A stretch of DNA of 63,652 nucleotides, counting the filler, from Eubacteriales bacterium (GTDB lineage Bacteria; Bacillota; Clostridia; Oscillospirales; CAG-382): NCBI GenBank assembly GCA_045636665.1. It is 8 parts of 8 records of this genome, joined end to end, with 100 filler letters (N's around TTAATTAATTAA, not from the genome) between each part and the next. Parts side by side here need not be neighbours in the genome. Positions count along the whole stretch, not along the records: positions 25,743 to 39,522 come from JAZTXY010000004.1; 7 more parts are not named here. One strand, 5' to 3'. Shown here one piece after another: positions 27,001 to 30,000 of the stretch. Each line of letters starts with the position of its first letter. Position 1 is the stretch's first letter. The position numbers are program-made.

Positions 27001-30000
27001 TTTTCGATTGGTGCAAGCGCGCAAACCGTTTTGGTTACGCAAATCGAGTCGATTTTTCACTTGATTTCGCGCATTTTAAACGGTGTCGGCGCTTATTACC
27101 TAATAAAAATTAATACGGAGGGTAACCTACCATGACGATCTTTTATGGCATTTCTATTTTGATTGCCGCGATCGCTTTTGTGTTTGCCGCTTACCTTTAC
27201 TTCTGGGTAAAGAAGCAACAGCAAAACAACAAGCGCATCACCGAAGTTGCCGGCCTCATTCGTGACGGCGCCAACACCTTTATGAAGAGAGAATATAAGA
27301 TTCTTGCAGTTTTCGCGCTTATCGTTGCAGTTCTTATCGCGCTCTTCCTCCCCAACCCCATCTGGAACGCAGAAACCGTTGACGGCAGATGGAGCGGTTG
27401 GAACAACATCACTATGGCTATCGCTTATATTTGCGGTACTATCCTTTCTGCTATCGCAGGTAAGCTCGGTCTTGTTGTTGCATCTCTTTCCAACGGCAGA
27501 TCTGCAGAAGCTGCCGCAAAAGGCATCAAGCCCGCATTTCTTATCGGCTTCCGCGGCGGTTCCGTAATGGGTCTTATCGTTGTAGGTTGCGCGGTTCTCG
27601 GCGTTTCTGTCGCTCTTTGGGCGCTCCACGACGCTTCTCTCCTTCTCGGCTTCTCCTTCGGCGCAAGCTCGCTTGCATTGTTTGCGAAGGCAGGCGGCGG
27701 TATATTCACCAAAACCGCAGACGTTGCGGCTGCCCTTACCGGCAAGGTAGAGCCCGGCATCGCAGAAGACGACCCGAGAAACCCTGCGGTTATCGCAGAT
27801 AACGTTGGCGACAACGTCGGCGACGTTGCAGGTATGGGTGCTGACCTTTTCGACTCTAACGTTGCGGCACTTACCTCTGCGCTCGTTATCGCAACCTCTC
27901 TTACCCAAGGTATGGTTGAGCTCAGCATGAAGATGGTTCTCTGCTATGCCGCTCTCGGTCTTCTCGCTTCCATCATCGGTATCGCTACCGCTCGTATCAC
28001 CAAGAACGGTACTCCTACCGGCGCGCTTAACTCCTCTACTTACGTGACTTCTGCAGTATTTATGGCGTTCACTGCCGCCGCTACCTATTTCTTCGATTTT
28101 TCTTGGCACATTTGGGGCTGTTCCACTCTCGGTCTTGTTGTCGGCGTTATCATCGGTCTTGCTACCGACTACTTCACCGACGACTCGAAGCCCATCGTTA
28201 AAAAGGTTGCTCACGCTTCCAAGAGTGGTCCTGCATTCACCGTTCTTTCCGGTGTTTCCTATGGCTTCCTTTCCGCACTTCCCGCAATGATCGGTATCGC
28301 AGTTTCCGCACTCGTTTCCTACAAAATTTGCGACACCGAAGCGCTTCTCGCCGAATACGGCGCAAACTTCCCCTTGTTCGGTATCTCTATGGCGGCGGTC
28401 GGTATGCTTTCCATCGTTGCTATGATTATCTCTAACGATGCTTACGGTCCTATCGTTGACAACGCACGCGGTCTTGCAGAAATGGGCGGCTTGGGCGAAG
28501 AAGCGATTCGCGTTGCCGACGAGCTCGACTCTGCAGGTAATACCGTTAAGGCGGTTACCAAGGGCTTCTCGATCGGCGCGGCCGGTCTTACCGTTATCTC
28601 CTTGCTCGGTACCTTTATGGCAGAAGCTGAAGCGGCAGGCCACGTATTCCTCAGCGGCTTCGATATTATGAACCCCACCGTATTCTTCGGTATTCTTATC
28701 GGTGCGGCTATCCCCGCGGTATTCTCGGCAATGCTCATCCTCGGCGTTGACAAAAACGCTCAGAAGATGGTTGCGGAAATTCACCGTCAGTTCGATACCA
28801 TCCCCGGTCTTAAGGAAGGCAAAGAAGACGTTAAGCCCGAATATGACAAGTGTATCGACGTTGCTACCACCGGTTCTCTCCGTGAGCTTATCCCTGCAGG
28901 TATGGTTGCGATTCTTTCCACCATCGCAGTCGGCTTCATCGGCGGTCCCGAAGCAATCGGCGGTTTCTTGCTCGGTAACATCGTTTCCGGCCTTCTCCTC
29001 TCGCTCTTTATGTCCAACGCAGGCGGTCTTTGGGATAACTCCAAAAAATACGTTGAAGCAGGCAACGAAGGCGGCAAGGGCTCGGAAGCTCACAAGGCGG
29101 CGGTTATCGGCGACACTGTCGGCGACCCCTTCAAGGATACCGCAGGTCCTTCGATCAACACCCAAATCACCGTTGTTTCTCTCGTAGCATCGCTTCTTTC
29201 TGCGTTGTTCGTTCAGTATAATATTTTCGGTTAACATAAAAACACCGCCAAGGAAATCCTTGGCGGTTTGCTTTTTGATAAGGTGCATTCAAAACGATGC
29301 GCCGTTTTTGTTATTTGAACCAAACGTAAACGCAGAACAAAATAAACAGAAAGCCCACAAGTGCGAAAACGCCTGCAACCAACAGTGCCGCCGCGAAAAC
29401 TCCGCCCATCATTGCGCGTGTTTCCTGCTTTGTAAGAGGAACGTCATCAATCGCTCTTTCCTCTTTCGGCTTTTTTTTGCTTCCGAAAAGCGTTTTCTTT
29501 TCGGTATACCAAGGCATACCGTCGACGTTCATAGGAGAAATTACTCTTCCATCGTCATCGTCGTATTCTTTCTTATTTCGTTTACTCATAATCGTTTACT
29601 CGTTCTCCTACTTGTCGTACAAATGGCAAGCAACAAAATGGCCGGGTTCGTATTCCTTGAATTCGGGAGCTTCGTTCTTGCAACGCTCGAAGCATTGAGC
29701 GCAACGAGTGTGGAACTTACAGCCCTTGGGGGGATTTGCAGGGCTGGGAAGGTCACCGTCAAGCACGATACGATTCATTTTCACATCGGGATCGGGAACG
29801 GGGATTGCAGAAAGGAGTGCCTTTGTGTAAGGATGCATCGGATTTTCGAACAAGTTGTCCTTCGATGCCTTTTCAACCATACTGCCGAGGTACATAACCG
29901 CAACCTCATCCGAGATGTGCTGAACAACCGAAAGGTCGTGGGAAATGAAGATATAGGTTAATCCTCTTTCCTTTTGGAGATCCTTCAAAAGGTTGATGAT

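Follow-up and report, generated by a model that had tools for sequence, protein, structure and literature searches.

Repeated loss of the rotary ATPase in uncultured gut clostridia and an accessory membrane pyrophosphatase with a predicted rebuilt ion gate

The rotary ATPase has been lost in several uncultured clostridial lineages of the animal gut, and this loss is real rather than a product of binning. The reading moderately favoured here is that these ATPase-deleted fermenters run a Na+ circuit made of oxaloacetate decarboxylase (OAD) and membrane pyrophosphatase (mPPase), with the gene described below acting as an accessory low-K+ pump that is decaying in the genome under study. That genome, G000 (GCA_045636665.1), is 80% complete in 139 contigs, and the gene lies in the window, the whole stretch of 63,652 nucleotides, filler included, that was analysed. 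All genomes examined from its genus are fragmented (20–400 contigs), none being closed.

ATP-synt_ab scores over cut-off in 14/61 genomes of the genus and in 10/23 of those of high quality (HQ), with the control at 14/14, which reproduces the counts of the initial annotation, and ATP-synt_C matches exactly the same 14 genomes. In a tree of one marker, RpoB, midpoint-rooted and covering 56/61 genomes (G010, G018, G019, G021 and G051 left out), G000 falls in a clade of 29 genomes (support 0.984) with F- or V-type subunits in 0/29, while ~23 would be expected from completeness. A second ATPase-less clade contains eight genomes, six of them at least 90% complete, and the sister genus, for which none of four had been noted earlier, still has a rotary ATPase in 0/8 genomes of at least 85% completeness. 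Profile and protein searches of G000 returned no catalytic, non-catalytic or c subunit, and 65 operon proteins from eight relatives gave no match there better than E 0.005. Weak PF00006 matches in G000 (E 7.7e-4) were rejected as ATPase subunits, being short P-loop matches only.

Close relatives keep an F operon or a V operon. In G008, G049, and G028, the F operon sits before a GH20/thioesterase-GHL10-cca block; this block lies mid-contig without atp genes in G000, and likewise in G036, G004, G024, G016, G007, G013, G015, G044, and G060. The distance from nadE to GH20 is 146 bp in G044, where G008 holds ~6.5 kb of atp genes. At the same site G030 (97% complete) retains a sole atpI-like gene, 40% identical to that of G028 (E ~1e-25), and this orphan is a deletion scar. 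The proposal that this genome and most of the genus have no rotary ATPase is thus borne out by the clade pattern, the empty syntenic site, and the scar. That the absence is instead a binning or assembly artefact, a caveat raised earlier, is hardly credible: the modest completeness and many contigs of G000 and the lower mean completeness of ATPase-less genomes (82%, against 91% in ATPase-bearing ones) would fit it, but the chance of clade-wide absence is log10 P ~ -22 under independent loss and -6.5 at half recovery, the empty site lies on single contigs, the two Pfam families are fully concordant, a control gene is found in 61/61 genomes, and the rotary ATPase is recovered at ~99% in four other families (41/41, 40/40, 40/40, and 39/40). 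Outside the family, absence may be under-counted because order-level PF00006 counts include flagellar FliI.

Lineages without ATP synthase have been reported, namely 60/103 DPANN, 10/33 CPR, and Bathyarchaeota in the available text of bioRxiv 10.1101/2023.04.11.536006, and the gut lineage UBA1242, also without mPPase, in that of PMC12306168. All resemble the present group in the clade-wide lack of an F- or A/V-type complex and in substrate-level phosphorylation. However, DPANN, CPR, and UBA1242 are described in that text as streamlined or host-dependent, whereas the HQ genomes here measure 1.5–2.4 Mb and carry sporulation genes, and only here do close relatives with an F or V operon make the deleted site demonstrable. 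A literature search, with the bioRxiv supplement on ATPase-less taxa outside its scope, found no description of ATPase loss in this group.

The window gene appears to represent a separate mPPase clade with a predicted rebuilt ion gate. Its features are as follows.

27132..29234, + strand: accessory Lys-type mPPase, 700 aa (ORF and family match; clade support 1.0 in the mPPase tree)
27687..27689, + strand: K186 at 5.50, Arg in solved enzymes (Lys in 120/120 homologues)
27732..27734, + strand: private D201A at the hydrolytic-centre Asp5.65 (Asp in 119/120 homologues)
27753..27755, + strand: private L208P, in the same conserved motif as D201A (homologue alignment and sequencing runs)
27852..27854, + strand: D241 at 6.53 instead of the gate Glu (Asp in 120/120 homologues)
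28548..28559, + strand: K473 (12.46) and T476 (12.49), determinants of K+ independence (residues compared in homologues; rule per the available part of PMC10897367)
29169..29171, + strand: T680 at 16.50, gate Lys missing (Thr in 119/120 homologues)

The motif GNTVKAVTK is read in this frame, in agreement with the GNTVKA of the initial annotation, and the K473/T476 pair is conserved in 120/120 aligned homologues. The Lys/Ala rule of the initial annotation was found in print (PMC10897367 and PMC9408878, as far as available), and NCBIfam does label both mPPase copies sodium-translocating. The further claim that this copy is a canonical K+-independent H+ pump has to be given up: Lys12.46 and Thr12.49 are present, but Glu6.53, Lys16.50, and Arg5.50 are not, and Asp5.65 is missing as well in this genome. 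Arg occupies 5.50 in the Tm, Vr, and Pa enzymes, and mPPases conserve Lys at 16.50 to 94.5% and Arg at 5.50 to 86.4% (PMC6882861, Table 3); K16.50 is considered central to gating in the accessible part of PMC5150537. In the present clade, 16.50 is non-Lys in all nine representatives of the tree set (T, A, C, V, and Y are seen), and 6.57 offers no acidic residue, being Ala in 120/120 homologues. Compared with the K+-independent H+-PPase of Pyrobaculum aerophilum (PDB 8B37; PMC10897367, in part), the clade shares the fold, K12.46/T12.49, the hydrolytic-centre residues, and S5.43, D6.50, S6.54, and N16.46, the last four kept in both alignment and tree, but it has K for R5.50, D for E6.53, and T for K16.50 and forms a separate clade with support 1.0. 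Loss of the gate Lys together with two co-occurring gate changes looks like a rebuilt gate, not decay. Between the window gene and its counterpart in G015, DNA identity is 94% and protein identity 98.7%, which indicates purifying selection. The window protein is 36–47% identical to canonical mPPase types, and no named Na+-regulated H+-PPase member was among the sequences compared in the tree. Those divergent Na+-regulated H+-PPases reportedly carry the Lys determinant at 23–34% identity to other mPPases. A literature search found no description of the window-gene clade.

The initial annotation had mentioned neither the clade-wide gate change nor D201A, which replaces an invariant Mg-binding Asp. 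Asp is found at 5.65 in 14/14 genus copies, and the hydrolytic centre is complete in the other 119 homologues, this allele alone, with Ala at 5.65, lacking it. D201A could be real decay or an assembly error. Asp is read in all four sequencing runs examined, none close enough to the strain of G000 to settle the matter; the same GAC>GCC change occurs at the phosphofructokinase (PFK) motif on the same contig, where a co-binned fragment has Asp; and G000 is not error-rich overall, as 21 of 3455 sites that are invariant elsewhere carry private changes and both RpoB and the Ala-type mPPase copy are free of them. The flanks of the gene contain the following.

26970..26998, + strand: sigma-70-like promoter TTGACA-17-TAATAT (consensus match only; shuffles give 2.9 such sites)
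27000..27131, + strand: leader of the window gene, from which the riboswitch-like RNA of relatives is missing
29231..29267, + strand: deletion junction, then a terminator hairpin (BLAST against G041)

The deletion, of ~1.9 kb, has removed a KdpD-like kinase and a KdpE-like regulator. A candidate LacI-like operator in the leader of G000 was set aside. With leader RNA and two-component pair gone and the catalytic Asp reading Ala, the module is probably decaying in G000.

In the relatives, this module is better preserved. A riboswitch-like leader RNA precedes the mPPase in 8/14 genus relatives, being absent from G000 and its three nearest ones, and 12/14 of its pairs show two-sided changes, a level of covariation reached in 0/500 shuffles. 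It also occurs before trkH, pyk (pyruvate kinase), and a gene for a CitMHS/ArsB-family transporter, and so shows one feature expected of a riboswitch, a conserved core with covarying stems before several unrelated genes. Terminator hairpins are present in 4/4 folded leaders, and a complement to the core that could act as antiterminator, in a weak test, in 36/102 leaders against 24/102 in the control. The KdpD/E-like pair is found in 12/14 relatives, next to the mPPase in the close subclade only; its top NCBIfam matches, KdpD and KdpE, score below cut-off, and DUF4118 is present in the kinase. The gene set of the RNA (trkH, pyk, Lys-type mPPase, CitMHS/ArsB-family transporter, and PiT) points to K+, and the RNA, which is probably K+-linked, is a candidate K+ riboswitch. 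Na+ (DUF1646) and c-di-AMP (ydaO) riboswitches likewise stand before ion-transport genes, often with an intrinsic terminator following (PMC9337991 and PMC7266159, in part); the present RNA differs in its K+-directed gene set and in having no match in Rfam 15 at gathering or E-value thresholds. In its available text, the 2022 Na+-riboswitch paper (PMC9337991) names K+ as an ion for which no riboswitch is known, and a literature search for this leader RNA or a K+ riboswitch found no description.

The second mPPase copy of G000 is Ala-type (motif GNTTAAIGK) and lies in two pieces at the ends of contigs C137 and C86, which overlap by 46 identical bases. It has A12.46, G12.49, E6.53, D16.46, and K16.50, the residue set of K+-dependent Na+-PPases (A12.46, G12.49, E6.53, D/N16.46, and K16.50), in common with the Na+- and Na+,H+-PPases of Thermotoga maritima (4AV3) and Clostridium leptum, and its orthologue in G041 passes NF001954, the best-fitting NCBIfam model. 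The residues thus agree with its earlier designation as Na+-type, with Na+ transport a prediction and Na+-only and dual pumping indistinguishable from residues. H_PPase scores over cut-off in 58/61 genomes and, as had been stated, in 23/23 HQ genomes. Two full-length copies were again counted in 4/13 ATPase-less HQ genomes (G011, G017, G056, and G059) versus 0/10 with an ATPase (Fisher p = 0.10, a value that overstates because kin are not independent). The claim that mPPases are doubled only in ATPase-less genomes stands within the genus (at least 17/47 vs 0/14 ATPase-bearing genomes) but not beyond it, since the wider Lys clade is carried by 23/357 ATPase-positive genomes of the order sample and the ATPase-bearing G099 has two mPPases. 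Only the subclade of at least 84% is confined to ATPase-less genomes (11/35, vs 0/69 ATPase-bearing family genomes); the wider clade extends beyond the genus to genomes that have an ATPase.

Other genes of the window are the following.

21476..23236, - strand: Na+/Pi cotransporter on a neighbouring contig, a Na+-gradient consumer (PF02690)
25904..26899, + strand: sialate O-acetylesterase-like gene upstream, outside the module (PF03629), conserved in nearest relatives only
38246..39522, - strand: PPi-dependent PFK, truncated where the contig ends; competes for PPi (TIGR02477 over cut-off)

The Na+-decarboxylase beta subunit OadB is found in 58/61 genomes. Its operon is complete (oadG-C-B-A) in G005, G029, and G056; G041 and G046, the nearest relatives, have oadC-B-A. 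G000 has a stand-alone oadB only; oadA/C/G, pyk, and PPDK were not found in its 80% assembly, so that its own circuit is deduced from relatives. Among five genomes examined, PEPCK and acetate kinase are each present in 5/5 and PPDK in 4/5, while the family II PPase domain and the Ech/Nuo large subunit are each found in 0/5 and family I PPase gives one partial match. Canonical RnfD, the D subunit alone being counted, is present in 8/23 HQ genomes, the number given before for Rnf, and in 0/29 genomes of the RpoB clade of G000. A universal PF03116 match was not counted as Rnf because it belongs to a degenerate RnfC/RnfD pair that has no gene for E, A, G or B beside it. SSF, Na/Pi, MATE, TrkH, and CPA2 transporters are present; the membrane-protein scan comprised 100 proteins, of 104/135 predicted polytopic ones in the loci examined. 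Two P-type II ATPases could be candidate Na+ exporters as well; the proton-efflux type IIIA was rejected for them, type II Ca-type scoring best.

In the favoured reading, fermentative, spore-forming gut clostridia have deleted the rotary ATPase several times, as is seen at genome level, and the lineage of G000 is without Rnf too. ATP would be made by substrate-level phosphorylation, with acetate kinase and PEPCK among the enzymes whose genes are present. Two primary pumps would charge the membrane in a Na+ circuit. The Na+-translocating OAD, fed by PEP through oxaloacetate, would thereby depend on catabolic flux, and the K+-dependent Na+-type mPPase, which is near-universal, would dispose of PPi besides, since soluble PPase was not found. 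The gradient would be used by Na+ symporters and cation/H+ antiporters. The window gene would be a patchily distributed, K+-independent accessory with a rebuilt gate, belonging in relatives to a low-K+ module of leader RNA, mPPase, and KdpD/E-like pair; it would most likely replace the main pump when K+ is too low and matter most where no ATPase can back that pump up. Clostridium thermocellum differs in having a rotary ATPase. It is similar in its PPi-PFK, PPDK, membrane PPase, and lack of a soluble PPase, but its own mPPase is dispensable in the laboratory (PMC8863071, in part).

The initial annotation held that the membrane is energised mainly by one or two mPPases that hydrolyse PPi, the second copy adding an H+ pump to a Na+ pump. 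The near-universal mPPase (every HQ genome), the want of soluble PPase in the five genomes apart from that partial match, the lack of Rnf and Ech in the clade, the restriction of the Lys copy to ATPase-less genomes within the genus, and the report of an Opitutales gut lineage that has no primary pump besides mPPase (PMC12306168, available part) all speak for it. Nevertheless, it is unlikely, because OadB is as widespread as mPPase, PEPCK is present throughout the five genomes, PPi-PFK and PPDK compete with mPPase for PPi, 9/13 ATPase-less HQ genomes have a single copy, and the Lys copy is without the gate residues of known H+ pumps. Quite improbable is the converse, that a decarboxylase-built Na+ gradient drives mPPase backwards to make PPi for PPi-PFK and PPDK, with PPi synthase replacing ATP synthase as chemiosmotic sink. 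mPPases are reversible (PMC9408878, in part), and PPi-PFK, PPDK, PEPCK, and OAD are at hand with no soluble PPase found; but deleting the C. thermocellum mPPase had no phenotype, evidence against its supplying PPi in that species (PMC8863071, available text), ATPase-bearing members of the genus carry the same gene set, and direction is not readable from sequence.

It is rather doubtful, too, that enzymes of the Lys clade hydrolyse PPi with weak or no coupling to transport, or transport a different cation, for example K+, and serve PPi disposal or K+ balance unrelated to ATPase loss. The replacement of K16.50 across the whole clade, the association with KdpD/E-like genes and with the leader RNA also seen before trkH, and the many ATPase-positive carriers suggest it, whereas the retained D6.50, S6.54, N16.46, and S5.43, the gate changes accompanying the loss of Lys, and the purifying selection seen against G015 do not. 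A bolder combination must be regarded as unlikely: that a Na+/PPi circuit, charged by the decarboxylase and with mPPase banking the energy as PPi, has taken the place of the rotary ATPase in free-living gut clostridia, and that the accessory pump, which has no gate Lys and possibly moves K+, is of a mechanistically new class under the first K+-sensing riboswitch, which would also govern trkH and pyruvate kinase.

Nearly all organisms are assumed to have a rotary ATPase, and where its loss has been reported, the lineages are mostly streamlined or host-dependent. In the present genus the loss recurs, genomes with an F operon, a V operon, or no such operon can be set side by side at one locus, and the membrane potential of a fermenter without ATPase becomes directly testable. 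Two further targets require no culture: an mPPase clade naturally without the gate Lys on which current pumping models rest, and a compact leader RNA whose gene set points to K+.

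On the genomic evidence, the loss of the rotary ATPase from most of the genus, as claimed in the initial annotation, is real, and the claim has been strengthened by a clade pattern, an empty site and a deletion scar. The ATP-synt_ab counts were reproduced (14/61 genomes, 10/23 HQ), and ATP-synt_C positives among the 61 genomes searched were exactly those 14, which carry an F-type (8) or a V-type (6) operon and in no case both. When counterparts of 65 ATPase operon proteins from 8 relatives were sought in the source genome G000, whose assembly is 80% complete in 139 contigs, none was found (best E 0.005). 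An RpoB tree covering 56 of the 61 genomes places G000 in a 29-genome clade (support 0.984) with 0 ATPase carriers, about 23 being predicted from completeness, and a further ATPase-less clade of 8 genomes is nested among V-type bearers. Sister relations in the tree include the ATPase-less G054/G056/G059 with F-type G002, and G030 with F-type G028.

Downstream of the F operon in G008, G049 and G028 lie GH20 and/or thioesterase, GHL10 and cca genes. This GH20/thioesterase-GHL10-cca block lies mid-contig on contig C98 of G000, with unrelated genes upstream and no F operon, and it likewise lies mid-contig without an atp operon in G036, G004, G024, G016, G007, G013, G015, G044 and G060; the 11 other loci compared were G030 (scar), G009 (contig edge too near) and nine uninformative ones with GH20 in other contexts. 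The nadE-GH20 gap of G044 is 146 bp, at the place where G008 has ~6.5 kb of atp genes. In G030 (97% complete) sufCB and GH20 flank an orphan atpI-like gene with 40% identity to its G028 counterpart, and this remnant is a deletion scar. Two controls support the recovery of genes: a degenerate RnfD was present in 61/61 genomes, and a rotary ATPase in 41/41, 40/40, 40/40 and 39/40 genomes of four other families of the order. Across the order sample an ATPase is present in 357/401 genomes, with absences scattered over further families; the apparent recurrence in other genera and families of the order is seen from presence counts (genus g5, 0/8 positive; families f17, 20/26, and f19, 13/17; also f5 and f18). 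The F-ATPase of the genus has a fused b-delta-alpha subunit of ~740 aa (L138:7488-9710, L134:7556-9772) and its c subunit has polar residues reminiscent of Na+-binding types, while the G048 F operon differs, with ~63% beta identity and gamma and beta read as a single frame.

It had been proposed that PPi hydrolysis is the main energy source of the membrane. The H_PPase counts were again obtained (23/23 HQ; 58/61 across the genus set), and the evident route of PPi disposal is the mPPase, because a search for soluble PPases in 5 genomes yielded no family II domain and a single partial family I match. However, PPi-PFK, and PPDK in 4/5 genomes, compete for PPi, and OadB of the Na+-translocating decarboxylase, missed previously, is present in 58/61 genomes. 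The four-gene oad operon is complete in G005, G029 and G056, the closest relatives of G000 (G041 and G046) have oadC-B-A, and PEPCK and acetate kinase are each found in 5/5 genomes. By established biochemistry, conversion of PEP via oxaloacetate to pyruvate would yield a nucleoside triphosphate together with Na+ export that keeps pace with catabolism; the flux itself is inferred. The PPi-only mechanism is thus downgraded to one among several. In C. thermocellum, biosynthetic PPi falls below glycolytic demand and mPPase deletion is without phenotype (PMC8863071). Neither pyk nor PPDK was found in the G000 assembly, and its only oad gene is a stand-alone oadB; the missing genes, oadB partners included, are probably due to assembly incompleteness. 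This second OadB type without partner subunits (L163:6595-7698, contig C86) is widespread in the genus.

The earlier Rnf figure was reproduced as canonical RnfD (8/23 HQ), which occurs in 6/8 F-type genomes, with a fragment in a seventh, and in 3/47 ATPase-less genomes, none of them in the 29-genome clade. The Ech/Nuo large subunit was not found in 5 genomes. A degenerate pair of RnfC-like and RnfD-like genes (L218:1726-3914; C123:19722-21913, minus strand) stands in G000 without further Rnf subunits around it, and its RnfD-like member is retained even in 60%-complete genomes. The 100 membrane proteins scanned include Na+ symporters, MATE, TrkH and CPA2 antiporters.

The two mPPase genes of G000 are of Lys and Ala type, and the former lies in the window together with a PPi-PFK:

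27132-29234, plus strand, contig C4: membrane pyrophosphatase, 700 aa, motif GNTVKAVTK
38246-39522, minus strand: PPi-PFK; in its GGDD motif Asp reads as Ala

As the window consists of eight contigs concatenated with N runs between them, genes on either side of 25642/25743 and of 39522/39623 do not neighbour each other in the genome. The second mPPase (GNTTAAIGK) is a single gene divided between two contig ends with an exact overlap of 46 bases. Doubling of mPPases only without an ATPase holds within the genus but not beyond. The contrast of two full copies was reproduced (4/13 ATPase-less vs 0/10 ATPase-bearing HQ genomes; p = 0.10), and the Lys copy occurs in at least 17/47 ATPase-less vs 0/14 ATPase-bearing genomes, these genomes being kin rather than independent. 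The subclade of at least 84% identity is found in 11/35 ATPase-less vs 0/69 ATPase-bearing genomes of the family, across three genera, with a single case outside it (G322, ATPase-less too), whereas the wider Lys clade is not exclusive (7/44 vs 23/357 in the order sample). In four F-type bearers, G053, G037, G047 and G048, the usual mPPase gives way to a third one (L078:3786-6116, L079-L082) that is of Ala type but divergent, its catalytic-loop motifs being altered.

The Lys copy had also been read as a K+-independent H+ pump. The Lys determinant rule, together with Thr, is borne out in print (PMC10897367, PMC9408878), but three gate changes are shared by the genus copies (all 15 full ones) and their 120 closest homologues (Lys5.50 and Asp6.53 in 120/120 homologues, Thr16.50 in 119/120). 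In a tree of 120 full-length 50%-identity representatives, from 150 listed, 9 form a clade (support 1.0) with K5.50, D6.53 and no Lys16.50. In the literature K16.50 figures as the charge that moves in the gate (PMC5150537), and its conservation is given as 94.5% (PMC6882861). It follows that the Lys rule does not tell which ion is transported. Purifying selection acts on the Lys-type clade.

Two changes are private to the G000 allele, Ala in place of the hydrolytic-centre Asp5.65 (27732-27734) and L208P; at these sites all four sequencing runs compared have the relatives' bases. The PFK motif on the same contig has the identical base change, so this may be an assembly error; real decay is plausible as well, because two genes have been lost in a clean 1.9-kb deletion at the stop codon. 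We read the window gene as part of an accessory low-K+ module, in an allele that is probably decaying. The PPi-PFK of the window, with its Ala, overlaps a co-binned variant (C89:1-618) at 92% identity, which suggests that strains were mixed or that C4 carries a base error. Another Lys-type allele of the genus (L076, G032) has catalytic Asp5.61 changed to Gly.

In 12/14 genus relatives the Lys-type gene is followed by a DUF4118 kinase, and in 11, wherever the contig extends far enough, by a regulator after the kinase; their best NCBIfam matches, both below cut-off, are KdpD and KdpE. A conserved RNA occupies the leader of the gene in 8/14 genus relatives, and is absent at 27000-27131 of the window:

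L255:709-830, plus strand: leader RNA example (also L064, L332, L371, L415; two tandem copies in L400)
L480:2010-6857 (G073): tandem Ala-type and Lys-type mPPase genes with the RNA motif in between

The RNA has a 15-nt core, whose conservation is partly built in because the core was the search pattern, flanked by two stacked variable stems and often followed by a terminator. Among 56 aligned sequences 92% of cells pair, as against 39-49% in slid controls, and two-sided changes occur at 12/14 pairs, which 0/500 shuffles equalled. Rfam 15 gave no match. A metagenome scan found at least 119 loci, making with the genus at least 142 matches and at least 101 downstream ORFs, one member of each ORF cluster being scanned and many being near-duplicates. 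Among the matches listed, these ORFs encode CitMHS/ArsB-family transporters (28), Lys-type mPPases (21), TrkH (10), pyruvate kinases (10), PiT (5), LPG-synthase-like proteins (5), rRNA methylases (4), P-type ATPases (3), DUF6142 (3) and singles (12). By its sequence motif, the pyruvate kinase is presumably the K+-activated type. The gene set of K+ uptake, K+-independent pump, KdpD/E and pyruvate kinase suggests that the signal is K+ or c-di-AMP, and makes the RNA a riboswitch candidate for either (for comparison, PMC9337991, PMC7266159 and PMC11210485).

ATPase-less prokaryotes are known among DPANN, CPR and Bathyarchaeota (bioRxiv 10.1101/2023.04.11.536006), and UBA1242 is a reduced gut lineage reported as ATPase-less (PMC12306168). 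Searches of an open-access collection without the main mPPase phylogeny papers yielded no description of the ATPase loss in this group, the mPPase clade or the leader RNA. The loss occurs in organisms where none was expected, and the module of the window gene brings a putative pump class and a riboswitch candidate.
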